From: a virus
Taxonomy: Duplodnaviria > Caudoviricetes
DNA length: 59,692 nucleotides
Direction: 5' to 3' (one strand)
IMG/VR virus record: IMGVR_UViG_3300042453_002905
Span: 1-59,692 of that record
Below the pieces are notes generated by a model, which ran no database searches, was not told the origin of the DNA, and worked only from the letters and a program-made list of their open reading frames with translations. Shown here one piece after another: positions 13,882 through 52,991 of this stretch (positions within the stretch are counted from its first letter, which is position 1; the number at the start of each line of letters is the position of its first letter). A program made the translations under genes and the position numbers.

Positions 13882-14070
13882 TCAGCCAGGCGTGGAGAGC
13901 GTCGTGCATGTGCCTTCCTCCTTGGGCTGAAGCTCGTTGCGAACGATCGCCACATTCGGCGGCGCTTTGATCGCGAGCCTGACGTTGCCGTCCACGATCC
14001 GCGTGACCATGACTTCGATGTCAGGGCCGATCCGAACCTTCTCGCCGCGGCGGCGGGTGATGACAAGCAT
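13882..14070 (-). CDS. csrA: Carbon storage regulator CsrA/RsmA homolog
   Basis: MLVITRRRGEKVRIG...VRLAIKAP..VAIVRNEL; RNA-binding R6 and R44 at the same positions as in E. coli CsrA. Confidence 0.93.
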   Translation of the reverse strand: MLVITRRRGEKVRIGPDIEVMVTRIVDGNVRLAIKAPPNVAIVRNELQPKEEGTCTTLSTPG

Positions 14071-14072
14071 TG

Positions 14073-14086
14073 CTGAGTCCTTTCAG
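14073..14086 (-). promoter_or_regulatory. GGA-loop hairpin CTGA-AAGGAC-TCAG over the csrA RBS (possible autoregulation)
   Basis: 4-bp stem with an ANGGAN loop, 2 nt before the ATG. Confidence 0.5.
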
Positions 14087-14107
14087 GCAGTTGTGTCGGT
14101 GCGTAGT

Positions 14108-14596
14108 TTAACGAGCGTTCGCGTTGGAGGCAAGCCAAGTTTTCGAGGCTTCTCGGACGGCGTCGATGCCGCACTTTTCAGCGGCCCATTTGATGTAGTC
14201 GACTCTGCCTGTTGCGGCGACCTCGTCGAGCGTCATGCCGACGAAGGTGTCCCGCACGCCTTGCGGCAGCCGGAACACGGCATCCTCGACGATCTCAGGC
14301 TCCTCCTCCTGCTCGATCGCGTCGACCCACTGGCCTGTCCCGCAGAAGCAGCACTCGATGTACCAGCGGCCTCTGGCCTTCTCCCAAATGTCGTGGCACT
14401 CGGCCTGGCACGTTTCGTCGAGGCACCGACAGGTGTTGTCGATCGTGCCTAAAGACTTCGGAATAGCTGCCTCCGACGTCTGCGGCCGATGCGTGAACGC
14501 AGGTTCCTCCGCGAGCGCCGGAGCCTCTTTTCGACGGCCCTTGGCCTTCTTCTTCTGCGGCTCCTCCGTCGGCGAGATGTCGAACAGCAGGCTCAT
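14108..14596 (-). CDS. Zinc-ribbon protein with DUF3820-like C-terminus
   Basis: Cys pairs; F.GMTL.EV....DYIKW motif. Confidence 0.6.
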   Translation of the reverse strand: MSLLFDISPTEEPQKKKAKGRRKEAPALAEEPAFTHRPQTSEAAIPKSLGTIDNTCRCLDETCQAECHDIWEKARGRWYIECCFCGTGQWVDAIEQEEEPEIVEDAVFRLPQGVRDTFVGMTLDEVAATGRVDYIKWAAEKCGIDAVREASKTWLASNANAR

Positions 14597-16230
14597 AGCG
14601 GCAGCCTCATCTTGTAGTCAGCACCTTGCTCCGTGGCGACGATCAGCTTCTTGCGTGCCCTCGTGACGCCGACGTACTCGATGCGCCGCTCCTCGTCGTG
14701 CTGGGCAGAGTCGATGCCTTGGGCCTCGTGGATGCGACGACTGATCGTCGTCGACAGCACGACCGTGTCGGCCTCCATCCCCTTCGCGGCGTGGATCGTG
14801 CCGACCCTAATGGCTGGACGTGTCGCCAATTCTGGGCCGTATTTTTCGGCGGCTCGACGCCAGCGGGCCGCGCCGTGGAACAGATCGCCCCATCCACCCT
14901 TTCGCAGTTTTTCGGCGAACTCAGGCTTCATGCCAGTATCTTCCAAGTCTGCCGGAAACACGACCTCCCACCGCTGGAGCGTATCATCACGCCCCCAGGC
15001 GGCCTTCGTGCCCTTGACCATGTTCCCGGTCGCCGGCAGGAGATCAACCGCCGCCGCGAAGTCCTCGGACGCCGCTGGGTTCCCGTGCTCGATATCCCAG
15101 AGGGCGTTTGCTGCCCGCAGAAACTTCGTATTGTCCTTGGCCTTGAGTTTCGCGAACGGCAGCCGCTTCTTCGCCAGCACCGCCTCCCAAATTTCGGCGG
15201 TGTAGTTGCAGCGGGCGATCACGAGTGTCTGGTCGGTCGCCGACAACCCGGCCGCGACCGTTTCGGCGTACCCGCCGCGAATGACCTCGCCCTCATGGTC
15301 GGCCGGCGAGATGCCTCGATCCCAGTAACCCTCCCGCATTCGCTTTAGGCATGATTCGCCAAGCTGAAGCACCGGAGCCGGGCATCGCCACGTTTTCGGC
15401 ATGATCCTTTGCTTGTGGACGTCCCATGCCATGAAAAGCCGCGAATCCGACCCGCCGAAGCCGAAGATGCTCTGCATCGGGTCGCCGGCCAGGTACACCC
15501 ACTTCACGTTCTCGCCGGCAGCCAGCCGCCGGCAGCACAGATCGACCAGCGGCGAGGCGTCTTGCTGCTCGTCCATCACCCATGCCTTCACACTCGGCGG
15601 CAACTCACCCTCTGGGTCTGTCTGCTCGAACCCCTCCGGCACGAACCGAATCCCCCCGAACCTCGCCAGAAGGTCGGTGAAATCGCAGCGGCGCTCCAGA
15701 CGCTTCGCCGACTCGTACTTCTCGATGTATTGCTTGCAGGCCGCGTAGGAGGGCATAGAATCGCCCAGGCGGGCCGCTCGCCGAATAGTCGACTCCAGAG
15801 GCTCCATCCTTGATCTGGCCTGCTCCCAGGCGTTCAAGGCCGCTGCGGCCGACTTCTCGCCCGTAAACCTCGCGTAGCCGCTGTCCTCGTCGATGATCGT
15901 CCTCACGTTGACGCCGAGAGCGTTGGCGATCCACTCGGCCGACCCCTTGGTGTCGTCGAGCAATTCCCCTTTCTTGACGCCAAGCTGCCTGTAGGCGATC
16001 GAGTGGACGGTTTTGAACCAACCATCTTTCGCCAGCACCTCCGGCGGCACGTTCCAGTTGGCACTAGCCCGCTCGACGGCCTCGGCACGGGCGGCGCGGG
16101 TGAAACTCGTGAACCCGATCGCAAAAGGGCTGCCACCGAGCTTTCCCTTCGCCGTGTCGATGACTCCCATGAGTTCGGTTGTTTTGCCGGTTCCGGCCCC
16201 GCCGACTAGCCGTGCTTTGATTGATTCCAT
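14593..16230 (-). CDS. UvrD/REP superfamily 1 helicase
   Basis: GGAGTGKT, DEQQD, AGDPMQSIFGF, TIHAAKGMEAD and YVGVTRAR motifs. Confidence 0.92.
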   Translation of the reverse strand: MESIKARLVGGAGTGKTTELMGVIDTAKGKLGGSPFAIGFTSFTRAARAEAVERASANWNVPPEVLAKDGWFKTVHSIAYRQLGVKKGELLDDTKGSAEWIANALGVNVRTIIDEDSGYARFTGEKSAAAALNAWEQARSRMEPLESTIRRAARLGDSMPSYAACKQYIEKYESAKRLERRCDFTDLLARFGGIRFVPEGFEQTDPEGELPPSVKAWVMDEQQDASPLVDLCCRRLAAGENVKWVYLAGDPMQSIFGFGGSDSRLFMAWDVHKQRIMPKTWRCPAPVLQLGESCLKRMREGYWDRGISPADHEGEVIRGGYAETVAAGLSATDQTLVIARCNYTAEIWEAVLAKKRLPFAKLKAKDNTKFLRAANALWDIEHGNPAASEDFAAAVDLLPATGNMVKGTKAAWGRDDTLQRWEVVFPADLEDTGMKPEFAEKLRKGGWGDLFHGAARWRRAAEKYGPELATRPAIRVGTIHAAKGMEADTVVLSTTISRRIHEAQGIDSAQHDEERRIEYVGVTRARKKLIVATEQGADYKMRLPL

Positions 16231-16330
16231 GTTTTCGACCAACTTTCCAAGGGGGGTGAAAAAACTTGGTAGACGTAAAGGGCTGTCACTCAATGACTTG
16301 CATCAAAAAAACCAACTTTCCACAAATCCA
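16231..16330. other. AT-rich intergenic region with repeated ACCAACTTTCCA; candidate replication origin
   Basis: 12-mer at 16238 and 16311; lies between primase and helicase. Confidence 0.4.
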
Positions 16331-18783: not shown

Positions 18784-18805
18784 GGATCGAATGTCCTCTT
18801 GCTCG

Positions 18806-18856
18806 CAAGAAAATCCCCCTCCCCTCCAGCCTTGGGCTTGCTGGAGGGGAGGGAGG
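18806..18856 (-). terminator. Intrinsic terminator
   Basis: 14-bp stem CCCTCCCCTCCAGC/GCTGGAGGGGAGGG followed by GGATTTTCTT. Confidence 0.65.
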
Positions 18857-18859
18857 AAG

Positions 18860-19809: not shown

Positions 19810-20259
19810 TCACCCCACAGTGAGGTGACGCAGTTTCGGCTGGACGTATTCACCGACCAGCCCCTCAAACACCGTCCCTTGTGACCACGGCGTGCGGGCA
19901 TCCGTGCCCGCTTCAGTTGCCATCTCCTTCAGCAGGCTCTTCAGCCTCGCCGTGTTCACTTGCGTGACCGCATCCCGCAGCCCCGCACGCTCTGCGGCCT
20001 CCATGACCGCCTCTTTCCGCGCCTCCGGCACGGAGCACGAGTGAGTCCATTCCACTCGCCACGAACGCCCCGCGGTGCGAACACCGTCGAGACGCTGTGT
20101 TGTCAGTTCCTCGACGGCGATCGACTCCAAGTGATCCCGTCGCTTCTTGAGTTCGTCGATCTGGTCGTTGAGGGCCGCGACCTTCTTGTCGATCTCTGTG
20201 ATCTCAGAAAGCGCCGTTTGTAGCGGCGTGTCGACTAACGAATCCGTCAATGATGTCAC
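19810..20259 (-). CDS. Coiled-coil replication-module protein (Gam/gp33-like)
   Basis: N-terminal coiled coil; VNTARLKSL motif. Confidence 0.55.
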   Translation of the reverse strand: MTSLTDSLVDTPLQTALSEITEIDKKVAALNDQIDELKKRRDHLESIAVEELTTQRLDGVRTAGRSWRVEWTHSCSVPEARKEAVMEAAERAGLRDAVTQVNTARLKSLLKEMATEAGTDARTPWSQGTVFEGLVGEYVQPKLRHLTVG

Positions 20260-30932: not shown

Positions 30933-30944
30933 GCCATCCGTGGC
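30933..30944 (-). promoter_or_regulatory. CsrA-type hairpin GCCA-CGGA-TGGC
   Basis: Contains CACGGATG (CANGGAYG) immediately before the start. Confidence 0.55.
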
Positions 30945-31739: not shown

Positions 31740-32902
31740 GGCTTCACTCCGGCGATGTGCATACTCACGAGGCCGCCTTCGGGGTCGTACAGAAACGACT
31801 CCATCGCCTGCCTCGATCCGATGAAGCCCATCTGAGAATGCCAGTCGTCTGGAGGACATATGGCAGGGGCTGTCCGCACGATCACGCCATCGAGCGTCTC
31901 GATCGGCCTCTGCCACTCCGCAGCCTGCGAGTGATAGTGGCCGGTGTGAATCTCGCGGTAGGGGCATTTGCTCCACGCATCTGCGGCCTCAAGGGCCATG
32001 ATCTGCGGAAGTTTCTTTTTTGCCCTGTGGCCGTGCGCAAAACCGATCAGGCACTTGCCGGATGTCAGGTACTTTCTGCCCGTGAAGCGACCATCGACGC
32101 TGACTCGCTTGTCGTTGCGGAACCGCTCTTGCATGATCCGTTGCAGCGACCACGTCAGAGCCTCGTCGTGATTTCCATTTACTATGAGCACGTCTGTCTG
32201 GCACGTTTCGGCCGAACGCTCGACGACGCCGATGATCGAGTCGCACCCTGTTTCGATCATCTTTTGCAGCCGGCCGTCGCGGTCAAGCGCAGTGCCGCTG
32301 GTCGTCGTGCCGTGCGGCGAGTCGTAGTGAAAAACGTCACCGAGGAGTGCGATCGTTCGCCTGGCAGGCTTGCCGCTGGCTGCCAGCAATTTCTGCGAAG
32401 CCTCGTTCACCCGCGTGGCGGCAATCTCCAGATCGTAGTCAGCGTCGCCCGTCGTCTTCTGCCACCCATACTTCCCAAAATGAGGGTCGGCGATGATGAG
32501 AACCTGCCAGAGGCCGCTCTTCTGCGGATGCTTCTTCGCCGCTGGACGACGCATCTGCTTCGTGGCCGAAGAGATCATCGCCTCGACTACCTTGATGACA
32601 GTCGGCCCAGCCTTTGGCTTCAGCCTGACGAAGACACGGTGAAGCTCGGTGACAGTCGGCTCGCCGTTGGCGTCGGCTGTCGCCACCTCCCATTTGGTGG
32701 CTTCACTGGCTGCTACATCGAAGCGCTCTAAGTCAGCCTCTATGTGAGCCAGCAAGTCTTCGACGGTCTTGATGCGTCGAGACGTGGATCGCGCCTCAAG
32801 CACGTCTCCATCGCGTTTTTGCGTAATCTGCTCGGCGTCTCGTGGCGGCGAAGGCGCAGGCATTTTTGCGGCGACGCTCTGCGCTATCGTCGTGTCAGCC
32901 AC
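31736..32902 (-). CDS. Calcineurin-like metallophosphoesterase
   Basis: DPH, GD, GNHD, HGH and GHYH motifs. Confidence 0.9.
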   Translation of the reverse strand: MADTTIAQSVAAKMPAPSPPRDAEQITQKRDGDVLEARSTSRRIKTVEDLLAHIEADLERFDVAASEATKWEVATADANGEPTVTELHRVFVRLKPKAGPTVIKVVEAMISSATKQMRRPAAKKHPQKSGLWQVLIIADPHFGKYGWQKTTGDADYDLEIAATRVNEASQKLLAASGKPARRTIALLGDVFHYDSPHGTTTSGTALDRDGRLQKMIETGCDSIIGVVERSAETCQTDVLIVNGNHDEALTWSLQRIMQERFRNDKRVSVDGRFTGRKYLTSGKCLIGFAHGHRAKKKLPQIMALEAADAWSKCPYREIHTGHYHSQAAEWQRPIETLDGVIVRTAPAICPPDDWHSQMGFIGSRQAMESFLYDPEGGLVSMHIAGVKP

Positions 32903-33126: not shown

Positions 33127-33416
33127 TCCTCCGTGATTCTGTAACCGAGCGCCCAAAGAATTCGTGCGATGTCGGCCCCCGCCATCGTGACGGATTCCTC
33201 GCTCATCTGAGGAAACGCGCAGTGGATCGCCTCGTGGACTTCCGTTTCAAGGCGGGTGCGACCTTTGAGCTTCTGGTCGATCAGTACCTTGCGAGTCCCT
33301 TGGTCTGGCTTGCTGGGGTCGGGGAGATACGCCCACCCAGCGGCGCGACCGCGGAGGCGGGTGTACCTCCAGAGCCACTTAATCCCGGCGATCTTGAAGT
33401 GGTGGTCGCTCGCCAT
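33123..33416 (-). CDS. Minimal zincin-like HEXXH protein
   Basis: TEVHEAIH...EE. Confidence 0.7.
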   Translation of the reverse strand: MASDHHFKIAGIKWLWRYTRLRGRAAGWAYLPDPSKPDQGTRKVLIDQKLKGRTRLETEVHEAIHCAFPQMSEESVTMAGADIARILWALGYRITEE

Positions 33417-41812: not shown

Positions 41813-44800
41813 TTAGACTGCTGCTTTCACTCCGTTGACTCCGTCCTTCACGGTGCGGAGCATTTCTTCAAGTACCGTCGACTGCCGTTGCAGTTCGACG
41901 AGGTTCTGGTCGCGGGCGGCGTCCTCTCCTCGCAGGAGCCGGTTCAGTTCGCGAGCACCCTCTTGCGTCGAGATGTCGGAGACGTTCAGGGCGGCTCGGC
42001 TCAGCCCTTGGAGGATCGCGTTCTCAACGGAGTCGGCGAGGCCGAAGATGGCCGGGGCGGCCTGCCTCGCCTGCTGATTCACGAACCTGTCGATCGCCAC
42101 CTGCTGTGCGGCGAAGTCGACGAGTCCACCGCCCTCGACGGCATCCTGGCCGAACGCCTGGCGAATGTCCTCGATTCCACGAGCCAAGTCTTCGGCCGCC
42201 TGCTGGGCAGGGGTCAGCGAGAGCCGTCGACCACGGGCTGCGGCTTGCCGCTGCTCCTCTTCTTGCGTCGAGGCGTCGCGAGCAGCGACCGCGGCGGGGT
42301 CGGCTGCGATCTGTGCGTCGATGGATGCCTCCAGCGCGGCTCTCTCCTGACGCAGTTGGGCCTGCGCTGAAGCGTCCAATGCGCCAGAAGCCAGTTGCTC
42401 ATTTATCTCACGGATGCGATTAAACGTGCCTTGGAGGGCCGGGTCGTTCTGTGCCTGCTCCTCAAGCCGCGCCCGTGCGTTGGCGATCTCCACCTGAGCC
42501 TGACGCTCCAGTTCGATCTGCCGCTGGAGGGCTGCATCGGCTGCGGCCCGCTCCTCGCGAGTCCTTGGAGTGCTAAATCCAAGGTCTTGCCGGCGAGCAT
42601 CGTCGGCCGCCTGCTGGGCCGACTGAAGGTTTTGGGCTGCTTCCTGAGACGCACGATTGAGTGCTTCGGCAAAACGATTGACGGCGAGTGTTGCCGCCTC
42701 GATGGCGGCGGCCTCGACGGCGAACGCCTGCTCGGCACGCTCTGCCCTTCGGGCGGCGAAGGGATTGTTCGGATCACGCTGGGCTGCTCGCGCCAGGGCG
42801 TCCCGGTTGGCCTGCAACTCGCGGAGGCGTCGAGCCAGTTGGCCCTCGGCTAGGCCAGCACCGGCGAGGTTTTGCTGGGCACGCTCCACGCGGGCCTGAA
42901 GCTGCCGCTGCGGGTCGACCGTGATCTCGCGACGCAGGGCGTCCGTGCGGGCGATGACATCGGCCTGGCGGGCACGGACTCGGTCGATACGGGCTTGGGC
43001 TTCGCCCTGCCGTCGAGTACGTTCATCGACTCCTTCGATTCGCCGAGCCGCCTCAAGGTCGATGAACGCTTGCCGCAGTTGCTCGCCAAGGAAGTTGGCT
43101 TGGGCCTCGAAGATTCTTGCTGAAGGTACTCCGAGCAGAATCGCGTCGGCGACGGCCTGCTGGGCTTGCTCGATTGCAATTGACGACCTGTTCCCAGACC
43201 GAATGATGGCGAGGGCTGCCTGGTCAAGCGCCCCACGAAGCGGGAGTTCAAGAGACGCCAACTGCTGCTGGAGGACATTGAGCCTGGCGGCGGCCCGATT
43301 GGCCTCTGGTGCGAAAAACCCTGCCCCCTCTGCGTCTGGCCGCAGGTTGGCGATTTCTGCTTCAAGAGCGCGACGCTGGGACTGGATCGCTTCCGCGGTG
43401 TCGCCTACATCAATGCCTGCGACCGACTGCTGAACTCTTGCCTCAATCGCCTCCGGAGTGAAGAGCCGCGGGTCAGCCCCCGTCCTCCGCCCTCTGTCGA
43501 ACTCGACGGTGCGCCTGGCCTCTGCAATGGCGTCTCTGATTTCGACGCCAGTGAACCGCCTGCTAAGTGCTGCCTGGGCCGCCTCGCGTTCCCTTCGGCG
43601 AGACTCCTCGACGCTTGCCTGAATAGCGGTCCTGGCACCGATGTCAGTCTGATCCTGTAGCTGACGTTGAAGCTGATTTTGCTGCGCTCGCTCTCGCTGC
43701 ACGGTCGGGTCATTGCCAAAGACAATTTCTTCTCGAAGCTCTCGCTGCTGATCGGCAAATCCAGACAACTGCCCCTCAAACGCCTGCGCCGCCCTCGCAG
43801 ACTCAGAGAAAGCGCGGTCTGAGATCGAGACTCCCAGCGTTGCGAAGGCGTCGGCTAGTTCCTCGACAAGCGTCTTCTGCCTTGCCAGCGAGTCATTCAG
43901 CGCCTTCGTCTGGTCTTCCGCCGTGCGGCCGTTGTTAATGTATTTAACGATCGCGACGGCTGCTTGGCCGGCAAGAACGGCACCGAGGGCGACGAACAGC
44001 CCAGTCGTGCCGCCAGCGACGAAGCCTAGCTGCGTAATGTTATTGCTGATCGCCCGCAGCTTTTGTTCGGGGCCGCCCACGGCTGAGAAGAAGTCGTCGA
44101 TCGCGAACGCCGCCTGGTTCAAGGCCAGGCTGATGTTGTCGGCACCGAAGCGGCCAACGTCGCCGGCTCGCCGAAGCTGGCCGCGAATGCGTCGCTGGGA
44201 GCCGGCACCACGAAGTTGCGACGTGGCTGCGATGGCCTCGTTTCTGGCAGTGTCGACGGCCGCACTTAGTTCGGCGTTGCCTGGATTTTCCAACGACAAC
44301 GCGACGGCCTCGCGAAAGCGGTTGAACGCCTGCACCGCCGGGCCGCTGGCCTGCGCCCCGACACGGCCGAGGATGTTGCGAAGCACCTCAAGCTCGCCAG
44401 CAGCGGAGCGGATGCGGCTGGCATTGATGAACTCGTCGAAATTGCCGAACTGGTCGCGAAGACCTTGAACCGACGAGGCCCGTCGAACGCCCGTCTCGAT
44501 GTCACGAACGCGGGCGGCTGCGGCGGCGATCTGCTCCTCCGTCGCGTCGGCGCTGTTGCGGAGATCAAGAAGCTCTTGTCGAGCCGCGGTCAGGGCAGGG
44601 ACGAAGCGGGACTGAATCGGGGCAGGCAGGCGGTCGAGGGCTGACTCCAGGGAGTTCACCTGGCCGACGATGACGCCGATCTGGCGGGTTGGGTCGGTGA
44701 GTGGCAGGCCGAGGCCGATTTGGTCTGGCGTCAGTGGAGGCGGTGGAGGCGGCGGCAGCGGCGGCCCTTGCGGGCCTTCGGCGATTCCGGCGATCCTGTT

Positions 44801-46507
44801 AAGCCGGTCTGTGTTTCTGGCGAGAGCCGCCGAAACGCGAGGGTCGCCGATCGGCAGGCCGGCGAACCTTTCAGCATCACGCTGCTGAAATCTCCCTGTC
44901 GCCTGCAACTGCCGCTCAAGCTGCGACCGCAGAAAATTGTCTTGTACGTTTGCGACTGCTGATTCCGCGCGTCGCCTCGCAGAGATCATCTCGTCGCCGG
45001 GCGACGGCCCTCTCTGGAGAAGAATCGCAGCCTCGGATGCGAAAACGTCGCGAGTTTGCCTAACGACGCGCAGCCGACGCTCTTCTGCGGCGACGAGGCC
45101 GTTCACCTTGTTCGTCTGCTCGGCGATCGCCAAATCGGCCGCAGCAAGCTCACGCGCATATCGTTCTCGCCCAAGCCTTCCGAATGCCGGCCCCTCGGCG
45201 AAGATTCCATCGCGGCGAGATTGCAATTCCGCGAGGGCCTGCAACTCCTGGGCGATGACGCCCGACCTAAACGCAAACTGCCCCTGACGCTGCTCCTGCG
45301 GAGACAGCTTGAGGGCGTCATCCTGAAGTGCCTTCGCCCGATTGATGGCGGCAAGTGCTTCGGGCTGCGTGAACGCGAACGATGTGCCGGCATTGAAACC
45401 AGCAAGGGCTTGCGTCACCTCGCCGATCCTGTCGACCGCCTCGACGACGCGAAGAGCCGACGCCGCGAGGGCGTTGAACCGTTGCTCGCCGACGGCGACA
45501 CCAGCCTCGATGTCGGCGCGAAGTCTTTCCGCCTGCTCTGAGATAGCATTGAAAGCCGGAGAGAACGCGGCCTGCACGTCGAGGCTGAACGACTCTAGCC
45601 GCTGCCCTGCTTGCGCAAGAGGCTCGCCGATCTGCTTGGCAGCCGAGAACAACGCTCGGACGCGGTTCGTCGCCGCGATGATGTCCTGCTCGCCAAGAAC
45701 ATTGATGACCGCATTGATCTGCTCTGGCGTCGCTCCGCGGAACTTCTCAAGTACCGCATCCAGTTCTGGGACGCCGCCAATCTTGATGAGGGCGTTCAGC
45801 GAGGTGGAACTGACTCCTTGAAGCTCCTCGACGACGCGATCAAGCTGCTCGACGCCGCCAATGCGGAGCAGGAGTCGCAGGTCTTTGCGACTCAGGCCGA
45901 GAGCCTGTTCCTCGACCGTATTGAGTGCCTCTGAGCCGCCGACACGCAGAGCCAAGGCAAGCCGCTCGCCCGAGAGCGAGCGCACTTCCTCCTGAATCTC
46001 ACGAAGCCTCGCCAGACCGCCGGGGCCGGCGTTGACTACCGCTCCGATCGACTGCTGGCTCAGGCTGCCAAGCTCGCGACGAATGTCACGGAGAGCACCA
46101 AGGCCGCCGAAGCGGACGGCGATGTCAAGATCGCGGCCGTCGATGCCCTCGATGGCACGGCGGAACTCGTCCAGCGACCGCATCCCGCTGGCCCGAACCA
46201 CAAGCCCGACCTGGCTCTGCTTGAGCGTTGCCAGTCTCTGCTTGAGGCCGTCGATGTCCTTGATCGCCCCTGCGAACCCGCGGAACGACAACTTCATCGA
46301 CGACGCAGCCTGCAACGCCCGCTCCAGCCGCTGCACCCGCGGGATCATCCCATCGAACGCCTTATTGGCGTCGTTGGTCGCCCGAGTGATGTCACGCTCG
46401 ACGCTGGTGGCGAACCGCCGGAGATCGTTGGCGGCACCGTTCAGGCTCCGACTGAAGCCCGAGGTGTTCGCCGAGACGATCGCCGAGATTTTGCCGAGGT
46501 AACTCAT
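41813..46507 (-). CDS. Tape measure protein
   Basis: About 1564 aa, Ala/Gln/Arg-rich; follows the tail assembly chaperones. Confidence 0.9.
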   Translation of the reverse strand: MSYLGKISAIVSANTSGFSRSLNGAANDLRRFATSVERDITRATNDANKAFDGMIPRVQRLERALQAASSMKLSFRGFAGAIKDIDGLKQRLATLKQSQVGLVVRASGMRSLDEFRRAIEGIDGRDLDIAVRFGGLGALRDIRRELGSLSQQSIGAVVNAGPGGLARLREIQEEVRSLSGERLALALRVGGSEALNTVEEQALGLSRKDLRLLLRIGGVEQLDRVVEELQGVSSTSLNALIKIGGVPELDAVLEKFRGATPEQINAVINVLGEQDIIAATNRVRALFSAAKQIGEPLAQAGQRLESFSLDVQAAFSPAFNAISEQAERLRADIEAGVAVGEQRFNALAASALRVVEAVDRIGEVTQALAGFNAGTSFAFTQPEALAAINRAKALQDDALKLSPQEQRQGQFAFRSGVIAQELQALAELQSRRDGIFAEGPAFGRLGRERYARELAAADLAIAEQTNKVNGLVAAEERRLRVVRQTRDVFASEAAILLQRGPSPGDEMISARRRAESAVANVQDNFLRSQLERQLQATGRFQQRDAERFAGLPIGDPRVSAALARNTDRLNRIAGIAEGPQGPPLPPPPPPPLTPDQIGLGLPLTDPTRQIGVIVGQVNSLESALDRLPAPIQSRFVPALTAARQELLDLRNSADATEEQIAAAAARVRDIETGVRRASSVQGLRDQFGNFDEFINASRIRSAAGELEVLRNILGRVGAQASGPAVQAFNRFREAVALSLENPGNAELSAAVDTARNEAIAATSQLRGAGSQRRIRGQLRRAGDVGRFGADNISLALNQAAFAIDDFFSAVGGPEQKLRAISNNITQLGFVAGGTTGLFVALGAVLAGQAAVAIVKYINNGRTAEDQTKALNDSLARQKTLVEELADAFATLGVSISDRAFSESARAAQAFEGQLSGFADQQRELREEIVFGNDPTVQRERAQQNQLQRQLQDQTDIGARTAIQASVEESRRREREAAQAALSRRFTGVEIRDAIAEARRTVEFDRGRRTGADPRLFTPEAIEARVQQSVAGIDVGDTAEAIQSQRRALEAEIANLRPDAEGAGFFAPEANRAAARLNVLQQQLASLELPLRGALDQAALAIIRSGNRSSIAIEQAQQAVADAILLGVPSARIFEAQANFLGEQLRQAFIDLEAARRIEGVDERTRRQGEAQARIDRVRARQADVIARTDALRREITVDPQRQLQARVERAQQNLAGAGLAEGQLARRLRELQANRDALARAAQRDPNNPFAARRAERAEQAFAVEAAAIEAATLAVNRFAEALNRASQEAAQNLQSAQQAADDARRQDLGFSTPRTREERAAADAALQRQIELERQAQVEIANARARLEEQAQNDPALQGTFNRIREINEQLASGALDASAQAQLRQERAALEASIDAQIAADPAAVAARDASTQEEEQRQAAARGRRLSLTPAQQAAEDLARGIEDIRQAFGQDAVEGGGLVDFAAQQVAIDRFVNQQARQAAPAIFGLADSVENAILQGLSRAALNVSDISTQEGARELNRLLRGEDAARDQNLVELQRQSTVLEEMLRTVKDGVNGVKAAV

Positions 46508-46827
46508 CAATCATCCTGAGGTGGTTGCGACAACTTAATCAACTCGCTGATCATCTGATCGCCCGACTGCTCAGGACGCACCGCGGTCGGGATGAAGACG
46601 TTTTCGTCAGGCACCCGTTTGTAGTTCCCGCTTGCCGCCATGACAGTCCTGCAAATCCGTGCGGTCTGCTGCCAGCCATCGGAGATCGGCCACCGCTGGT
46701 CGTAGGCAAACCACTCGCTGAGTTCCTCGCTATCCACCTCCTGAAGCAACCGCTTGACCGACATCCCCAGCGCGAGCGCTAGGCGGAAGTAGAAGCGTCG
46801 CTCTGGTCGGTCGCGGAATCTTTTCCC
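46507..46827 (-). CDS. Tail assembly chaperone, -1 frameshift extension (gpGT-like)
   Basis: The -1 frame from the slippery site reads RFRDRPERRFYFRLALALGMSVKRLL...EW.AY. Confidence 0.8.
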   Translation of the reverse strand, partial: GKRFRDRPERRFYFRLALALGMSVKRLLQEVDSEELSEWFAYDQRWPISDGWQQTARICRTVMAASGNYKRVPDENVFIPTAVRPEQSGDQMISELIKLSQPPQDD

Positions 46828-47150
46828 AGCGTGTCGATGTCCTCGTTACGGAGGGCGTTGAGCGACCACGCCTTATCGAAAATCTTTGCGATCACGACCG
46901 ACGACTTTTTGCCCAGTTCGTTCATCTCTTCGTCGGTGAACAGACGCTGGCCCTTCTCGTCACAGAGGGTCATCACGAGAAACCGCGCCCGAAAGTTCTT
47001 CATCTTCTCGGTCGAGTAGGCATCCTCGAACTTGTCGCGGTCGGTGCCCGAAAGCACCTTCACGAACACCGAGCCGCCCCACTCAGGCACGGCGACCTCT
47101 TCGAGCTTCACGTCTTCTGCGGCGAGAATCTTTGCTTTGTTCAGAGCCAT
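46779..47150 (-). CDS. Tail assembly chaperone (gpG-like)
   Basis: VPEWGG.V.V..LSG..RD and LCDE.G.RLF motifs. Confidence 0.85.
   Translation of the reverse strand: MALNKAKILAAEDVKLEEVAVPEWGGSVFVKVLSGTDRDKFEDAYSTEKMKNFRARFLVMTLCDEKGQRLFTDEEMNELGKKSSVVIAKIFDKAWSLNALRNEDIDTLGKDSATDQSDASTSA
46821..46827 (-). other. -1 ribosomal frameshift site G GGA AAA
   Basis: X XXY YYZ heptamer in the correct frame near the end of the chaperone gene. Confidence 0.85.
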
Positions 47151-47537: not shown

Positions 47538-47873
47538 TTACGCGACGCGGAAGGTCGCGCTCCCCTTGATGAGGTCCCCGACGGAACCGCCGATCGAGGC
47601 AGACGAGCAAGTCGCGTTCCCCGTAAACGAAATCGGCCCGCTGATGGCAAGCGCACCGGACGTGCCGGCCGCCAGGATCGTCGTCGAGATGTAGTCGATC
47701 TGCACTTCGCGATCGGTGGCGAAACCGCCAACGTACTCACGACGCTGATTCGGGCCAATGCCCAGGTGGCTGCCATCAATGAGGTCTTGCGTGTCGTTGA
47801 CCTGCACCGACGTGACCGTCAGTGCCGAGCCGCCGAAGGTAAAGGTGAGTCCCTGTGCCGAAACGCCTGCCAT
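47538..47873 (-). CDS. Tail tube (major tail) protein, paralog 1
   Basis: MAGVSAQGLTFTF...VGDLIKGSATF; follows the tail terminator. Confidence 0.75.
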   Translation of the reverse strand: MAGVSAQGLTFTFGGSALTVTSVQVNDTQDLIDGSHLGIGPNQRREYVGGFATDREVQIDYISTTILAAGTSGALAISGPISFTGNATCSSASIGGSVGDLIKGSATFRVA

Positions 47874-47877: not shown

Positions 47878-47915
47878 GCGCCTCCTTGCGCTATAAGCCC
47901 TCAAGCGTCCTGCTT
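47878..47915 (-). promoter_or_regulatory. Two GGA-loop hairpins in the tail-tube leader
   Basis: AAGC-AGGAC-GCTT (47903-47915) and GCGC-AAGGAG-GCGC (47878-47891). Confidence 0.6.
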
Positions 47916-47941
47916 TCAGGCGGTGTTGTCTTGTCCAGTCG

Positions 47942-48361
47942 CTAAACACTCCAGCGTAATCGGTACAACTGCCTGACCTCATACGCTGGGGGTAGTTGCG
48001 AACTGCTCTGGATGGGGTCGAGGAAGTCGTCCACCTCCGAGGTCAGCCGCATATCTTGTATTGTAACGCTGGCGAGAGTGCCGCTGTGACCATCAAGGCA
48101 CTGCCAGACCTCGTAGGCGACCTCACGAACGGCGTCATATGTCGGCCCCCAGATCGACAGTTGCATATTCACAAGCGGCTTGATGTCGAGGCCCGCCAAC
48201 TCCGAATCCCGCGAGATGCCGGAACGCCGGTAGATCACAAACGGCATTGCCGCGCCGGTCTTCGGCACCGCCATCGGGTAGACGCCGAAACCGATGTGCC
48301 TCGCCACCGCAGGTGTGGTCACGAGCCGCAGATAGATGTGTTTTTCGGGCAAAAGCAGCAT
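47942..48361 (-). CDS. Tail terminator (DUF3168-like)
   Basis: VYP...P....PFVIY pattern; gene order. Confidence 0.75.
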   Translation of the reverse strand: MLLLPEKHIYLRLVTTPAVARHIGFGVYPMAVPKTGAAMPFVIYRRSGISRDSELAGLDIKPLVNMQLSIWGPTYDAVREVAYEVWQCLDGHSGTLASVTIQDMRLTSEVDDFLDPIQSSSQLPPAYEVRQLYRLRWSV

Positions 48362-49113
48362 CAGCGAGACGCCTTGTTTATCAGTTGGATCAGTTCCCCC
48401 TCCAGAATCGACTTAACCTGAGCCTGTTTTTGCGCGATGGTCTTCTGCATCAGCCCGAGGGCAGGCATCCCGCCGTAGGTTTCTCCGGGGTGCAATGTCA
48501 TCGGACGCATCTCGTCGTCACCGGCAAGCCGCATGAAGTCGTGCGTGTACCCGCGGCCCATCCTCGCCTGCCTGGTCGGCTCGTTGCGAGAACCCATCAA
48601 AAAGTAATAACCGGCTCCCATCCGGCTGAAGTTTTCGTCGTTCGTCGAGGAGTGCCGAGACATCTTCCCGTTGATGCGTTGGTGGACGTTGATGTACGCC
48701 CGACGATTCTGCGAACCGGGCTTGCGAGGCTTCGATCCGAACTCGACCAGCCAGGCGTGATTGCCACTGGCCCGCTTGATGCTGGCCCCAGCGCTGCCGG
48801 TCTGCTCCGGCCCCGTCACCGCGACGGCGACCTCGCCGCTGCGGTACTTTCTGGGAAGCGTCTTCGTGCTGCGGGCGAGGTTGCCGGTGGCCTCGATGGC
48901 TCGTGCCCTCTGCTTGTAGCCCTCCAGAATCGGCACGCTGGCCTTCTTCACGGCTGCGGCCTTCTCGGCATACGAGACGCTCTGCTCGATCTCGTAGAAC
49001 CGCTTCAGCACCTCGTCCATGCCGTCCATGCCGATGCGGACGAACGCATTGGCAATCTGCTTGCCGGTGCGTCCGTTGAAGTCGATCGGCGTCGGTGTGC
49101 CGCGGTTGATCAC
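48361..49113 (-). CDS. HK97 gp10-like tail completion protein
   Basis: TGNLARS and HAWLVEFGS motifs. Confidence 0.75.
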   Translation of the reverse strand: MINRGTPTPIDFNGRTGKQIANAFVRIGMDGMDEVLKRFYEIEQSVSYAEKAAAVKKASVPILEGYKQRARAIEATGNLARSTKTLPRKYRSGEVAVAVTGPEQTGSAGASIKRASGNHAWLVEFGSKPRKPGSQNRRAYINVHQRINGKMSRHSSTNDENFSRMGAGYYFLMGSRNEPTRQARMGRGYTHDFMRLAGDDEMRPMTLHPGETYGGMPALGLMQKTIAQKQAQVKSILEGELIQLINKASR

Positions 49114-49442
49114 TGCTTTTCCCTCGTCATAATCTCAAGGACTGCACGATCCTCTCTGCCATACGAACTGGGACGCTCCATCACGGTGGTGATCTCCAGA
49201 ATCCGGCCCCGCCACAACAGCCGGTGCTCCGGGGTGATCCCGTCTCGATACCGGATATACACCTTGTGACTAATAATCATGTTCACCTGCATCGCCTGGA
49301 GCACGTCGCGGCCCGAGTAGGCGTAGACGTTCGCCCACACGGTCGCCACGTCGTCCCACTGAAGCGTCGTCTCGCCGAGCGTGCTCCGCACGTCGCGAGG
49401 CGCTTGAATCGTCACTCGCTCGCGGAACCTTCCGGCTTCCAT
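49110..49442 (-). CDS. Head closure / head-tail adaptor (SPP1 gp16-like)
   Basis: AG.FRERVTIQ, W.DVATVWA and IRYR motifs. Confidence 0.85.
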   Translation of the reverse strand: MEAGRFRERVTIQAPRDVRSTLGETTLQWDDVATVWANVYAYSGRDVLQAMQVNMIISHKVYIRYRDGITPEHRLLWRGRILEITTVMERPSSYGREDRAVLEIMTREKQ

Positions 49443-49445
49443 GCC

Positions 49446-49775
49446 TCACCCGATCCAGATGGCGGAATACGCTGAACTCGACGCCGTCGTTCGCACGGTG
49501 ATCGTGGCTGTCACTGGCAGCACCGCCATTCGGCCTGGCTGGATCGCCATTGCGCCGGCCAGCACGATCGGCTCGGTGCCTGTGTTCTTCACGGCTAGCG
49601 TCGTGAGCGGGCCGCTTCCGACGATTGAAGATGATTGCGTCGTTGCGTTGCCGCTGATGAGTTGAGCCGTCGATGGCGACGAGAAAACGTGATCCGAGAG
49701 CGCCCCCACTGTGAATGCGCTGTCGGTGCGATTGTGAAATACAACATCGGAGTGGATTCTGGCCTGGATGCTCAT
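49446..49775 (-). CDS. Hypothetical virion protein
   Basis: ATGA coupling within the head-tail module. Confidence 0.65.
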   Translation of the reverse strand: MSIQARIHSDVVFHNRTDSAFTVGALSDHVFSSPSTAQLISGNATTQSSSIVGSGPLTTLAVKNTGTEPIVLAGAMAIQPGRMAVLPVTATITVRTTASSSAYSAIWIG

Positions 49776-50437
49776 CGGTACGACCCCCACCTGGCTGACG
49801 CCAGCAGCGTCTTCACCGTGTACGGAATATCCATTGCGCTGATGCCCTGGCCGTAAGTCACCGGCTCGCGAGACTCGTACCAGTGACCAGCCAGCATGAT
49901 CACGAGGTGGCGAACGTCGGCCGGCACCTCGTGCGGGTTGCCGTAGCCGGCCACCCAGCGGACGCGAACGCTGTTTTCGTCGCCTCTGGCCGGCGGCCAC
50001 GTCGCCGTGTAGTTCGGGTAGACGCGGCCGGGGATCGAGTAGTGGTCGACGCGGAAGTTTCCGGCGGCTGACGTGATCGTCGTTTCCTGACCACTCACTC
50101 CGCTGACGTAGGTGATTGTCACGCTCGTCGGCTGGATCGGCGGGCGCGGCAGGACGAAGTCCCATGACGGAAAGTCGTCGTAGGTGGCCTCAAGCGTGGT
50201 CGTGATAAGCGTCTGGTCGGTCTGCTCCTCGGCCCACGTCGAGGCAGCCGCGATCAGCCCCATGATGTATGAGTCGTCTTCAGAGATGTCGACGCGGCAA
50301 TGGCTTTTCACGTCGGTGAGCGCGACGGGCCACACCGTCGGCTGCACCACCTTGCGGAGGCTCCTGTACCTCGTGGCGATTGGCGAGAGCGGAGGGGTCG
50401 CCTCGTGGCGGCCGTCCCAGATGCGTCCTGTGATCAT
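49772..50437 (-). CDS. Head-tail connector (HK97 gp6 / phiE125 gp8-like)
   Basis: PV.L.DVK.HCRVD..EDD, AGYG and HWYE.RE motifs. Confidence 0.88.
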   Translation of the reverse strand: MITGRIWDGRHEATPPLSPIATRYRSLRKVVQPTVWPVALTDVKSHCRVDISEDDSYIMGLIAAASTWAEEQTDQTLITTTLEATYDDFPSWDFVLPRPPIQPTSVTITYVSGVSGQETTITSAAGNFRVDHYSIPGRVYPNYTATWPPARGDENSVRVRWVAGYGNPHEVPADVRHLVIMLAGHWYESREPVTYGQGISAMDIPYTVKTLLASARWGSYR

Positions 50438-50625
50438 TTGCGCCGTTTCCTTGGCTTGCTGTCGATCGATGCGTGCTCGACCTCTGGCTCGACCGTCGCC
50501 GTCTCATCCTCGGCCACCGGCTCGACCAGGCCGCGGGCCACGAAAATGCGGGCCATCCCGTCGGGCCAGTCAAACTCCTGGCCTCGCTTGTACGCCTGAA
50601 ACGCCTGAACGACCCGAATCTTCAT
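50434..50625 (-). CDS. Small virion-module protein with L9-N-terminus-like pattern
   Basis: MKIRVV...GQ....DGMAR....RGLV. Confidence 0.6.
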   Translation of the reverse strand: MKIRVVQAFQAYKRGQEFDWPDGMARIFVARGLVEPVAEDETATVEPEVEHASIDSKPRKRRK

Positions 50626-51350
50626 TTTATCGCCCCCCATGCTGCCTCTGGCGGGATGCGACCGCCGTTCCAAAACTCCGTCGTGTGCTGCTGCACCTTG
50701 CCGCCTTCGACCGAGCGGCTGGGCCAGGTGATCATCAGTTCGGCGTGGCCGACGCTGATGTTCGTCGCGAGGCCCAGCTTGTTGCCAGACTTCGCAAACA
50801 ATTTCCAGAATGCGATGTCCTCATCAACGTGACCGCCGTCGAATTCGCCCCTGTCATTCGCCGCAGCGATGAACCAAGGCTTCGGCATCTTCTTGATCGC
50901 CGCAGTGCGGAGGAACGTCAGGCCGAAGTGGGCCGTCTCCACCGGCTGCACCGGCTTCGTGAAGAATTCCGCCTCGACGCTGGTCTTCTCTTCGGGAGCC
51001 ACGCCTGGCAAGGCGAACATGACCGCGTTGGCCTCCCGCTTCGTCTGGAGCGGTGCAATCGCGTCGTAGCCCGAATACATGAGGAGGGCCAGGAGAGCCT
51101 CGACCGTCTTACTCGTAAAAACGGTGTCGTAGTCGATCGTCAGGATCACGTCGTGCGTGTCGACGACGGTTTCCATCGCCCTTTGGAGGCACTGGCCCCA
51201 GAAGGCTCCGGTCACTTTGATCGGGGCGATGCCGTGCGGAGCCAGAGCGCTCGACACACAGAAGAAGTTGTCGGTGAAGCCCAGCCGCGGGGTGCTCATC
51301 ACCGCTGCGACTTTGACCTCGGCCTCACATGATCCGACTCTGACCAGCAT
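50622..51350 (-). CDS. Glycosyltransferase (GT2-like) directly after the major capsid gene
   Basis: IDYD (DxD), FGLT, PKPWF, EDI.F and VGH motifs. Confidence 0.75.
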   Translation of the reverse strand: MLVRVGSCEAEVKVAAVMSTPRLGFTDNFFCVSSALAPHGIAPIKVTGAFWGQCLQRAMETVVDTHDVILTIDYDTVFTSKTVEALLALLMYSGYDAIAPLQTKREANAVMFALPGVAPEEKTSVEAEFFTKPVQPVETAHFGLTFLRTAAIKKMPKPWFIAAANDRGEFDGGHVDEDIAFWKLFAKSGNKLGLATNISVGHAELMITWPSRSVEGGKVQQHTTEFWNGGRIPPEAAWGAIK

Positions 51351-51356
51351 ATCGAT

Positions 51357-51421
51357 CGCTCCTATGTAAAAGGAGCGGGCGCGCCTCCTTGCGCCTATTT
51401 GGTCATCCTGACCATCCCGCT
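51357..51421 (-). promoter_or_regulatory. Three-way junction with two GGA loops, competing with an RBS-sequestering hairpin
   Basis: AGCGGG/CCCGCT encloses TGGTC-AGGAT-GACCA and GCGC-AAGGAG-GCGC; alternative helix CGCTCCT/AGGAGCG. Confidence 0.6.
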
Positions 51422-51430
51422 ATACGGGGC

Positions 51431-51468
51431 GATGCCCGGCGGGGGCTGATTGCTCCCCGCCGGGCATC
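51431..51468 (-). terminator. 14-bp hairpin after the capsid gene, no U-tract (stabiliser, pause or weak terminator)
   Basis: GATGCCCGGCGGGG/CCCCGCCGGGCATC. Confidence 0.55.
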
Positions 51469-51488
51469 TTGACTTCATTGGCTATTGA

Positions 51489-52847
51489 TCAGCTACCAGC
51501 GACGGCGGCGGTCTTCAGAGCCACCACGGGGCCGACTTCAGTCGTCGAGCCGAGCGAGTGATGGTTGATGTCGAACCGCATCGTGCCCTGCATCAGAAGC
51601 TGATCGGTGGTCGCGTAGACCTGATCGAAGAGCTTCATGCTGAACTCGCGACGAGCCGCGTAGATGCTGGAGAGGCCCAGGTTGCCGAAGAGCACCTTGA
51701 TCGCACTGCCGTCAGCACCCAGCGTGCTGTTGAGGACGTGTACCAAGGTCACTGGATATCCCATGAATGAGAGTCCAGCGTCGCCTGAGAGGTCGCCAAC
51801 GGCGTTGCCGCCGAGAGCGTACTTCAGGCGAGCGATCGACGCGGCGTAGCCAGCGGGGCTGACGTACCACCGAGCACCACTGCGAGCGTAGATCGGCAGC
51901 TTGCCGATCACGGCGAGGAAGTCCTCGACGTCGAGCGTCTCGAAGCCCGTGTTGCCGGAGGCGGCGGTCACGACCGAAGCGGTCGTGGCGTTGCTGCCGA
52001 TGGCACCCACGATGCCAGTGATCGAACCGTCGCCGGAGGTGCCGGCACCATTCCAGCCCACGGAATCGATCTTAAACGCGAGGCTCGTCCCGAATTCCTG
52101 CGTGACTTGATCGGCGATGTTCACATAGCTGGCCGAGTCCTCCAGCACTTCGCTCGACAGGCGGCAAGCCACCGCGAGCTTCTTGCTGTTGAGGGTCACG
52201 ACGTTCCATGCTGGATCGCTCTCGGTGATCGAGCCGCCTTCGGAGACGAAGTAGGCCGTCGTGCCGGTCGTCCGCTTCGGGATCGTCATCACGTCCCGAG
52301 CCAGCGTCACACGCTCGCAAGCCCCCGGCATGGTGCCGAAGGTTTCGACGAGTCGGATCACGCGGGCGGCGAACTCCTGCGGCACGAGATAGCCACCGGC
52401 CGAGTTCGATCCCTCGGAGAGGGCACGAGCCTCGACGCCGTGGTCACGGCACCACCGGATGTCGTCCTGATTCTTGAACACCGTCGCCCGAATCCACCGG
52501 CCGGTGCGATAGGCGTCTTCCACCGCCTGGGGGCCGTCGTTGAACGCCCGCAGTTCGGTGTGGTGTGGCAGCATGTGCCGAATCTCGACCTTCTTCTCGG
52601 CCGGAGCCTCGGCGACCGGAGCAGCCTTCGCAGGGGCGGCGGTTTCCACCACGGCCCGCAGTTCGGCTTCCTTCGCGGCGAGCTTGTGCTCGAAATCAAG
52701 GTCGGTCTTGACGACATCGGCCTCGTCGGAGAGCTTGCGGAGTTCCGCGGTCTGGTCGTCCGAACGCTCGGAGACATCGGTAAGTTCGGTCATCCGAGCA
52801 GCGATGGCCGCTGCACGATCCTGAAGACGCTTGAGATTGCTAGCCAT
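51489..52847 (-). CDS. Major capsid protein, HK97 fold with delta domain
   Basis: Coiled-coil N-terminus; GGYLVP and A.FV.EG motifs; AGGAG RBS. Confidence 0.95.
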   Translation of the reverse strand: MASNLKRLQDRAAAIAARMTELTDVSERSDDQTAELRKLSDEADVVKTDLDFEHKLAAKEAELRAVVETAAPAKAAPVAEAPAEKKVEIRHMLPHHTELRAFNDGPQAVEDAYRTGRWIRATVFKNQDDIRWCRDHGVEARALSEGSNSAGGYLVPQEFAARVIRLVETFGTMPGACERVTLARDVMTIPKRTTGTTAYFVSEGGSITESDPAWNVVTLNSKKLAVACRLSSEVLEDSASYVNIADQVTQEFGTSLAFKIDSVGWNGAGTSGDGSITGIVGAIGSNATTASVVTAASGNTGFETLDVEDFLAVIGKLPIYARSGARWYVSPAGYAASIARLKYALGGNAVGDLSGDAGLSFMGYPVTLVHVLNSTLGADGSAIKVLFGNLGLSSIYAARREFSMKLFDQVYATTDQLLMQGTMRFDINHHSLGSTTEVGPVVALKTAAVAGS

Positions 52848-52926
52848 AGTGGCCTTGCTCCTAAATGTGAGCCGGCCACGGGGCAAAAAGATGCTCGACG
52901 GCCGGCGGGTGAAAAAGTCCCGCAAG

Positions 52927-52991
52927 CACGCCGAGCGACGCAGTCCGCGTCACCCTCGCACTGTTCCTCGCAACGTCCGTCGCGAGGCGTG
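52927..52991 (-). promoter_or_regulatory. Capsid leader with two GGA-loop hairpins
   Basis: CCTCGCGAC-GGAC-GTTGCGAGG (52966-52987) and GACGC-GGACT-GCGTC (52937-52951), enclosed by CACG/CGTG. Confidence 0.6.

Follow-up and report, generated by a model that had tools for sequence, protein, structure and literature searches.

Proteins of the CsrA family act on messages that present GGA in a hairpin loop, the consensus obtained by SELEX, and the high-affinity targets of RsmE are ANGGAN hexaloops; one CsrA dimer can bridge sites 10–63 nucleotides (nt) apart. Binding represses translation when CsrA occupies the ribosome-binding site (RBS), as in glgC and in its own message, or makes a sequestering hairpin more stable (psl), and activates it by opening a sequestering hairpin (ymdA) or by protecting the 5' end (flhDC), according to the sections of PMC7652899 drawn on here. 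Phages carry the gene as well: a 2020 survey found csrA in 30 of 2517 phage genomes, with no function given in the portion used (PMC7366521), and the csrA of phage JC1, which lies directly before the capsid gene, was called a moron with a possible virion association (PMC9144972, in part). Here we analyse a window of 59,692 bp that is the whole of IMG/VR virus record IMGVR_UViG_3300042453_002905; with direct terminal repeats and a completeness estimate of 100, it is the complete 59.7-kb genome of a freshwater siphovirus-like phage. This phage carries csrA, and four of its messages, those of the major capsid protein, a glycosyltransferase, the tail tube protein and CsrA, begin with conserved predicted hairpins that show GGA, mostly as A-N-GGA-N, in the loop. 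We favour, with moderate confidence, the reading that these hairpins form a regulon through which the phage CsrA controls major virion genes and its own synthesis.

The E. coli glgC leader combines a high-affinity upstream GGA hairpin with a second site over the RBS, one dimer bridging the two, and E. coli csrA represses its own translation; RsmE and RsmA recognise hcnA and RsmZ through an ANGGAN hexaloop on a short stem (all from the same sections of PMC7652899). The phage sites take this hexaloop form, and the RBS of the phage csrA likewise lies in a candidate hexaloop; unlike in E. coli, the regulator is phage-encoded, its putative targets are phage virion genes, and the arrangement is predicted from sequence. 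On pslA, a hairpin of the RBS and its anti-site adjoins the RsmA-binding site, whereas the phage glycosyltransferase hexaloop lies beside, not inside, the sequestering hairpin, and the capsid hairpins are tetraloops. In the activation of ymdA and moaA and the 5'-end protection of flhDC, two sites near the 5' end or beside an RBS-sequestering hairpin can open the RBS or stabilise the message (PMC7652899, same sections). The capsid leader has both features, paired GGA hairpins near the 5' end and an RBS-sequestering helix, and differs from those messages in using a four-step chain of alternative helices.

Among mobile elements, the csrA of Lessievirus JC1/Bcep22 and of Pseudomonas phages of the rsmM type is described as a moron or as a gene without assigned role, and the portions of PMC7366521 and PMC9144972 used here name no phage targets, whereas the sites defined here are conserved candidate targets on the late genes of the phage. 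The CsrA paralogues of Legionella integrative conjugative elements, CsrT among them, are thought to control the element's own functions (PMC7366521, in part), the carrier there being a conjugative element and not a virus. A literature search, with subscription journals and supplements outside its reach, found no report tying phage CsrA to capsid or tail leaders. What is new here is probably a CsrA-type control that a phage exerts over virion genes of its own and, alongside it, a structured but uncatalogued 5' untranslated region (5'UTR) carried by at least 125 IMG/VR contigs. Phage csrA, annotated in ~1% of phage genomes and given no function in the parts of PMC7366521 and PMC9144972 consulted, gains concrete candidate targets in the capsid, tail-tube and glycosyltransferase messages, and the question of its role becomes directly testable.

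The csrA gene (13882–14070, minus strand; 62 amino acids, aa) sits in the replication module, directly after a UvrD-type helicase gene and ~39 kb from the capsid gene. A first-pass annotation of the window had called it intact, with R6 and R44, and database comparison bears this out: the product matches Pfam PF02599 with E 8.1e-18 and 64.6 bits (cut-off 27), residues 1–49 covering profile positions 1–49 of 53, and residues 1–52 align without gaps to RsmE (2JPP, E 3.7e-7) and to CsrA chains. The alignment contains both arginines, in the contexts M1 L2.. T5 R6 and V-R44-x-E-(L/I), while position 4 is I, not L; the role of L4 and R44 in RNA binding is taken from a figure legend of PMC7652899. On these alignments the phage gene encodes a bona fide CsrA-family protein.

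The gene's own RBS lies in the loop of a predicted hexaloop hairpin, CUGA-AAGGAC-UCAG (14073–14086, minus strand). In the window and in all 11 relatives compared, the csrA RBS falls within A(A/C)GGA(G/C), and the stem reaches at least 4 bp in 10 of the 11 relatives and 3 bp in the eleventh. The stems covary, with at least four different sequences (GCUGA/UCAGC, AACGG/CCGUU, ACGGA/UCCGU and UCCGA/UCGGA). No such RBS hairpin was present at any of three chromosomal csrA genes in a Planctomycetaceae metagenome-assembled genome (MAG; G011), which has four CsrA matches. Upstream, a pattern scan found the promoter-like sequence TTGCCT-N17-TAAACT (14103–14133, minus strand), at whose position the csrA genes of relatives have TAGGCTAC.

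The major capsid gene (51489–52847, minus strand; PHROG 10, major head protein, E 4e-46) encodes 452 aa from ATG 52847, which is preceded by the RBS AGGAGC and from which relatives align starting at residue 1; the alternative start TTG 52925, where the long open reading frame begins, was overruled on these two grounds. Because the gene starts at ATG 52847, the spacer between the protease and capsid genes is a leader of ~150 nt that holds both capsid hairpins. Searched with the capsid protein, IMG/VR yielded 101 confirmed related stretches; we retained 80 loci, whose capsid proteins are 64–98% identical to that of the window. We aligned 46 distinct capsid leaders, derived a consensus with RNAalifold and counted pairs on that structure, the cells of these counts being sequences and not independent events.

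The resulting 5'UTR (52848–53005, minus strand; fold z-score −4.45) is predicted to contain five helices. Standard pairs occupy 95.2% of cells, against 35–45% when the partners are slid by one to three columns, and 146 cells are changed on both sides, against 12–32 for slid partners. Such compensatory changes occur in 17 of the 32 pairs, and none of 500 shuffles reached the observed pairing measures. G-U pairs are frequent in the helices on the sense strand only, which points to an RNA rather than a DNA structure. The leader is preceded by a promoter-like TTGCAC-N18-TAGGAT (53006–53037, minus strand; pattern scan); the looser form TTGNNN-N16-19-TANNNT lies upstream of the first hairpin, P1, in 43 of the 46 leaders, with TTGCAC itself in 40, and the end of the −10 element is 16–18 nt from P1. 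Sites of the general form TTGC(A/C)N-N17-18-TA(G/A)(G/A)(A/C)TAC, common to the capsid gene and csrA and realised as TAGGCTAC in most relatives, are otherwise few in the genome (minus strand, 58256; plus strand, 39566, 58004 and 58049).

P1 (52966–52987, minus strand) is a 9-bp stem with the tetraloop GGAC, and shows compensatory change at all eight aligned pairs. Counted by alignment column, 44 of the 46 leaders have GGA in this loop (GGAU in 28, GGAC in 11, GGAA in 4 and GGAG in 1), the exceptions being L006 and, through a one-column shift, L012. P2 (GACGC-GGACU-GCGUC, 52937–52951, minus strand) has compensatory change at four of five pairs and GGA in 43 of 46 leaders; the hairpin is missing in two, and one has UGAU. 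After GGA the capsid loops continue with U or C, where an RBS mimic would be expected to have G, and the spacing between the two GGAs is constant at 31 or 32 nt by alignment column. Around P2, the linker CAGUGCGAG pairs with CGGCGUGCU (52925–52963, minus strand; consensus partner GCGGCGYGCU) in a helix of eight pairs, 97.3% of them formed and three with both-sided change. There follow, at 52899–52923, P3 (GCGGG...CCCGC) and the 5' strand of P4, GCCGGCCG. P4 itself joins GCCRGCCG to YGGCYGGC, its pair 124:157 being G-C in 35 leaders and A-U in 11. In five natural variants (L133, L205, L187, L032 and L049) P1 persists, but P2 or its GGA has disappeared.

Scans with Rfam 15 gave no match at gathering score over the window and a single chance-level match (E 4.1) on 51300–53100; the Rfam Csr/Rsm small-RNA models matched nothing in the window, although no scan dedicated to CsrB/RsmZ-type sponge RNAs was made. 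A pattern scan of IMG/VR for the leader core returned at least 120 stretches, and among the matches listed were 115 new loci, 80 of them with the full set of leader features and ~27 of them chance hits. Contigs of relatives from two RNA-library runs span the 5' end of the capsid gene and some of its leader (to 52946 and 52897); we set them aside as evidence, because contigs cannot show transcript starts and DNA may contaminate such libraries.

The 3' part of the capsid leader can fold in two ways. The strand GUGGCCGGCUC (52869–52879, minus strand) may serve either as the 3' strand of P4 or as the 5' strand of a further helix, P5, whose 3' strand comprises the RBS AGGAGC and GGCCAC (52849–52862). 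In P5, GGCY pairs with RGCC just upstream of the AUG, and GCUC with the GAGC of AGGAGC. Each of the 46 leader tails folds into a P5-type hairpin on its own, and in a register search 9.46 of 10 pairs formed on average, compared with 8.99 ± 0.06 after permutation of the 3' halves; none of 500 permutations attained the observed mean. Eleven leaders have U as the variable Y of the shared strand, and they are the ones whose P4 and P5 partners are both A. P4 (RBS free) and P5 (RBS hidden), which share the GGCYGGC strand, are mutually exclusive, and both are conserved. When the helices were enforced in turn, the sequestered P5 state came out as the more stable in 44 of 46 leaders (mean difference 8.0 kcal/mol); an extended P3 accompanies it, formed with the strand that would otherwise pair around P2. 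The helices of the leader make up a chain of exclusive pairings, 1:2, 2:3, 3:4, 4:5; the chain is read from the aligned sequences, whereas the trigger of any flip along it is a matter of inference.

The tail tube protein gene (47538–47873, minus strand; 111 aa) was assigned from its place between the tail terminator and chaperone genes and from a structural model (predicted local distance difference test, pLDDT, 79.5) that matches the tail tubes of a gene transfer agent, SPP1 and lambda with template-modelling scores of ~0.6. Its RBS lies in the hexaloop hairpin GCGC-AAGGAG-GCGC (47878–47891, minus strand), and a stem of at least 4 bp around A(A/U)GGAG is kept in all 25 distinct tail-tube leaders. 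Compensatory stems occur as GAGC/GCUC (L038, L041) and UGAA/UUCA (L004, L005), and the flanks vary freely.

The same 14-mer, GCGCAAGGAGGCGC, occurs a second time in the window (51381–51394 as well as 47878–47891, both on the minus strand), within the leader of the predicted glycosyltransferase gene (50622–51350, minus strand; 242 aa). The model of this protein (pLDDT 79.5) has a GT-A fold; its best Foldseek match is STIV A197 (E 1e-8), collagen galactosyltransferases are matched as well, and Pfam gave only a sub-threshold match. The DYD motif is invariant, the gene lies in the head module and is conserved in all relatives, and virion proteins may be its substrates. In 44 distinct aligned sequences the leader contains three hairpins, and it is kept even where another gene stands between it and the capsid gene. 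Hairpin a (UGGUCA-GGA-UGACCA, 51400–51414, minus strand) has a conserved stem, CGGCC/GGCCG in most leaders. Hairpin b (GGCGC-AAGGAGGC-GCGCC, 51378–51395, minus strand), which encloses the repeated core, shows an ANGGAN loop in 42 of the 44 leaders (the exceptions are L007 and L022), with the stem GUGC/GCAC in L069. It is not an RBS, and no start codon follows it. Hairpin c (CGCUCCU...AGGAGCG, 51357–51377, minus strand; five nearly invariant pairs) begins 2–3 nt downstream and sequesters the RBS of the glycosyltransferase gene, leaving ~28 nt between the GGA of hairpin b and that of the RBS. A pairing of the hairpin b AAGGAG with CUCCUU, as an anti-anti-site or terminator, was rejected because the loops of relatives (AAGGAU, AUGGAA and ACGGAG) break it.

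Comparison with the CsrA rules quoted above separates the sites into two kinds. The predicted csrA, tail-tube, 7880 (see below) and hairpin b sites, on stems of 4–5 bp, conform precisely to the hexaloop rule, whereas P1 and P2 appear to fit in the near-invariance of GGA and in spacing, but as GGAY tetraloops on stems of 5–9 bp. The 10–63 nt rule for site pairs agrees with the 31–32 nt between P1 and P2 and the ~28 nt between hairpin b and its RBS, and the tail-tube and csrA sites are themselves RBSs. As for covariation, the stems predicted for the capsid, csrA and tail-tube messages covary, and the glycosyltransferase leader is conserved mainly in sequence. CsrA, the phage's and possibly the host's, may accordingly be expected to bind these candidate loops and set the translation of the most abundant virion proteins, as we infer from the motifs and their conservation. 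The effect at sites within an RBS would most likely be repression; for the capsid leader, activation is weakly favoured.

The proposed mechanism would run as follows. The csrA RBS hexaloop would provide negative autoregulation, and at the tail-tube hexaloop CsrA would compete directly with the ribosome. On the glycosyltransferase message, CsrA bound to hairpin b would act through the adjacent hairpin c that locks the RBS. The capsid message would be made from its own promoter, after which one CsrA dimer would bridge P1 and P2 near the 5' end; the clamp would keep back the strand needed for the extended P3, P4 would be favoured and the RBS would open.

Several observations weigh against this regulon. 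Three of the 46 leaders, and the further contigs L133, L187 and L205, have either no P2 or a P2 without GGA, and in both capsid tetraloops GGA takes loop positions 1–3 and not those of the canonical hexaloop; very stable stems are, moreover, described as possibly disadvantageous for CsrA sites in the part of PMC7652899 used. In the GCGC stems and in the glycosyltransferase leader, sequence conservation outweighs covariation and the structure is backed by few compensatory changes, which in the glycosyltransferase leader affect only 2 of 14 pairs. Hairpin a has the loop ANGAY and, counted from the alignment, GGA in only 17 of 44 leaders. The first-pass annotation had argued that five loops are not RBSs, so that Shine–Dalgarno overlap could not explain them; that argument survives for the conserved loops at 52966, 52937 and 51381, and is weakened by 51400 (hairpin a) and by 47903, which is unconserved. 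Hexaloops that hold an RBS could also merely keep it accessible in a GC-rich mRNA.

This last point belongs to an explanation in which CsrA plays no part: the hexaloops would keep the RBS single-stranded, the upstream stem-loops would shield the 5' end or serve ribosomes as standby sites, and the P4/P5 exchange would proceed by co-transcriptional folding alone. We regard it as fairly unlikely. The tail-tube, csrA and 7876 sites are indeed the RBSs themselves, the genes concerned include those of the most abundant virion proteins, P1 lies ~10 nt from the inferred 5' end, and the 5'-to-3' order of the helices would permit kinetic folding to the open state even though the closed state is more stable. 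However, three conserved GGA loops (P1, P2 and hairpin b) are remote from any start codon, and GGA is near-invariant in the loops while the stems vary, the next base being U or C, with no extended anti-Shine–Dalgarno pairing. The protease, tail terminator, chaperone and neck genes are well-translated structural genes too, yet their leaders have a plain RBS and no such hairpin in any relative, and csrA, scarcely an abundant virion component, carries the same device.

It is unlikely, too, that the capsid leader, and perhaps that of the glycosyltransferase gene, is the operator of some other factor, such as a phage RNA-binding protein, capsid or scaffold feedback or a small-molecule riboswitch, with the GGA loops there by coincidence. 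In its favour, the P1 and P2 tetraloops depart from the canonical CsrA hexaloop, long invariant stretches (CAGUGCGAG, GCGGCGYGCU and GCGGGA...CCCGCC) exceed what a CsrA site needs, and Rfam offers no family match. No candidate alternative binder was identified, however; four different messages, csrA's own among them, share one loop motif, and the fixed P1–P2 spacing lies within the range that a dimer can bridge.

Counts within the single genome contribute less. The enrichment of GGA-loop hairpins in leaders expected from the first-pass annotation is absent by a loose criterion (stem of at least 4 bp, loop of 3–8 nt): 184 of 1664 GGAs on both strands lie in such a loop, and leaders taken as 20, 40 or 60 nt hold 8 of 75, 11 of 107 and 14 of 131, against ~11.1% elsewhere (Fisher p 0.60–0.65). 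GGA loops are thus not generally enriched in leaders, a further point against the regulon, and we rejected genome-wide enrichment as evidence. A strict criterion (hexaloop ANGGAN with at least four Watson–Crick pairs) finds 7 of 319 ANGGAN in hexaloops, compared with 0.57% of all hexamers and 0.26–0.71% for five control motifs; in 300 dinucleotide shuffles the mean was 2.25 (sd 1.44), and one shuffle reached 7. In this strict form the enrichment is modest, and the motif was defined post hoc, after the repeated 14-mer had been seen; on a single genome taken alone the claim is weak.

The decisive support is comparative, lying in conservation and covariation across relatives rather than in single-genome counts. 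A strict-hexaloop scan of the window and six long relatives, with no genes preselected, gave 7, 11, 7, 5, 6, 6 and 6 matches, almost all on the coding strand, and found the tail-tube, glycosyltransferase-leader and csrA hexaloops in all seven genomes; RBS hexaloops on other small genes, with covarying stems, were found as well. In phi297, a csrA-positive temperate phage of 62% GC, only 2 of 307 ANGGAN lie in hexaloops, which indicates that base composition does not create the pattern and that not every phage csrA is accompanied by it. That the sites are chance 4-bp hairpins around GGA-rich RBSs in a 62% GC genome is scarcely credible: with 11% of all GGAs in such loops and leaders not enriched, the hairpins at 47903, 30933, 33127 and 46511 do look so, but the core elements are conserved and covary across dozens of diverged relatives, the exact 14-mer occurs twice, and chance is refuted for these elements by the 0 of 500 shuffles and by 95% versus ~40% of cells paired.

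The first-pass annotation had suggested a comparison of csrA-positive with csrA-negative relatives. The gene is present in 12 of 15 long leader-carrying contigs, including all 12 estimated to be at least 67% complete, the three without it being 54–60% complete, and csrA is a core gene of this lineage. Since the contigs form one lineage, no independent association of csrA with the leader follows, and their co-occurrence may reflect common descent only, which again counts against the regulon.

The theme may extend beyond this lineage, as hinted by an unrelated group of phages, Bcep22, JC1, DC1, Cimandef and GP4 (L114:7366-7463; L241, L242, L243 and L244), which have a CsrA-like gene upstream of the capsid gene, at a distance of one or two genes. 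The capsid leaders of Bcep22, DC1, Cimandef and GP4 contain two GGA motifs, AUCGGACC and GCAGGAKG, 17–19 nt apart, and in JC1 the CAGGA motif alone is left. A long helix that closes on the RBS takes in the second motif (CAGGAUG or CAGGAGU). As a lead only, we note the csrA-positive Escherichia phage Bas95 (L113), where 6 of 137 minus-strand ANGGAN lie in strict hexaloops, on early genes, compared with 0.39% for all hexamers and none of 132 ANGGAN on the plus strand; one of these hexaloops is in the leader of the operon of the CsrA-like gene, and one is an RBS at 32415.

Taking both lineages together, it is possible, if doubtful, that phage CsrA is the trans-acting half of a self-contained switch of late-gene translation and not a host-directed moron. 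Such a switch would have arisen or spread in several unrelated lineages, this one and the Bcep22/Cimandef/GP4 group among them. The capsid 5'UTR would be a protein-responsive riboregulator in which a dimer clamp forces the helix chain from hidden to open RBS; capsid synthesis would be licensed only after autoregulated CsrA has accumulated, and tail-tube and glycosyltransferase output would be trimmed by direct occupation of the RBS. If true, this would add a post-transcriptional layer, with a regulator borrowed from bacteria, to late-gene control in tailed phages, and the protein and its RNA operator would make a compact pair that is portable.

All eleven coordinates named in the first-pass annotation hold the hairpin or motif described there, on the minus strand, including the two copies of GCGC-AAGGAG-GCGC and the variant GCAC-AAGGAG-GTGC; as members of a regulon they fared unequally. 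Those at 52966, 52937, 51381, 47878 and 14073 are conserved. The variant, GCACAAGGAGGTGC at 7880–7893 (minus strand), forms an RBS hairpin GCAC-AAGGAG-GUGC before a 94-aa gene (GTG 7876) and is kept in one of the three orthologues found (G002, as GCGC-AAGGAG-GCGC), the other two having a 2-bp stem. Four further sites have little or no comparative support: the hairpin at 47903 is not conserved among 24 relatives aligned; that at 46511 is a 3-bp triloop in the window, with a hexaloop form in some relatives only; the form at 30933 has a similar counterpart in one of three relatives; and TCACGGAGGA at 33127–33136 (minus strand) is not conserved in the single relative found. The proposed link to the lysis region accordingly falls, the 84-aa 'holin-like' protein having no Pfam or PHROG match.

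Outside these sites, a hairpin GCGGGC-ACGGAU-GCCCGC (19894–19911, minus strand) lies within the 3' end of the gene at 19810–20259, ~120 nt before the next start codon. Five relatives (G001–G005) have a hairpin of like form, with covarying stems and similar downstream sequence, as candidate counterparts. Strict hexaloops without comparative support are ACGC-AUGGAG-GCGU (13531–13544, minus strand) and UUCG-AUGGAG-CGAA (21694, plus strand), a number equal to the chance expectation of ~2. In relatives, two further families of small plus-strand genes have AAGGAG or AAGGAA RBS hexaloops (L096:1958, L099:5509, L103:5504 and L104:16034), whose stems are fully different between orthologues.

GC content is ~62% across the window, most genes lie on the minus strand, and no near-identical isolate phage was found among the records. 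PHROG matches name the minus-strand structural genes for the large terminase (55714–57216), portal (54105–55712), prohead protease (53011–54126), head–tail adaptor (49772–50437), neck (48361–49113), tail terminator (47942–48361) and tail assembly chaperone (46779–47150); the tape measure gene (41813–46507, minus strand; 1,564 aa) was assigned by size and position, with no PHROG match behind it. Gene starts elsewhere in the genome were set heuristically. The Planctomycetaceae MAG bin G011 includes a 9.9-kb contig with a close capsid relative (L090), the sole one in the species-genome collection; capsid homologues in 400 other genomes of that phylum are only 24–35% identical. Directly 3' of the capsid stop codon lies a strong, near-perfect hairpin (51431–51468, minus strand; region z-score −7.17), and in L004 and L005, relatives of lower GC, the same position is occupied by a stem with a U-run, like an intrinsic terminator.

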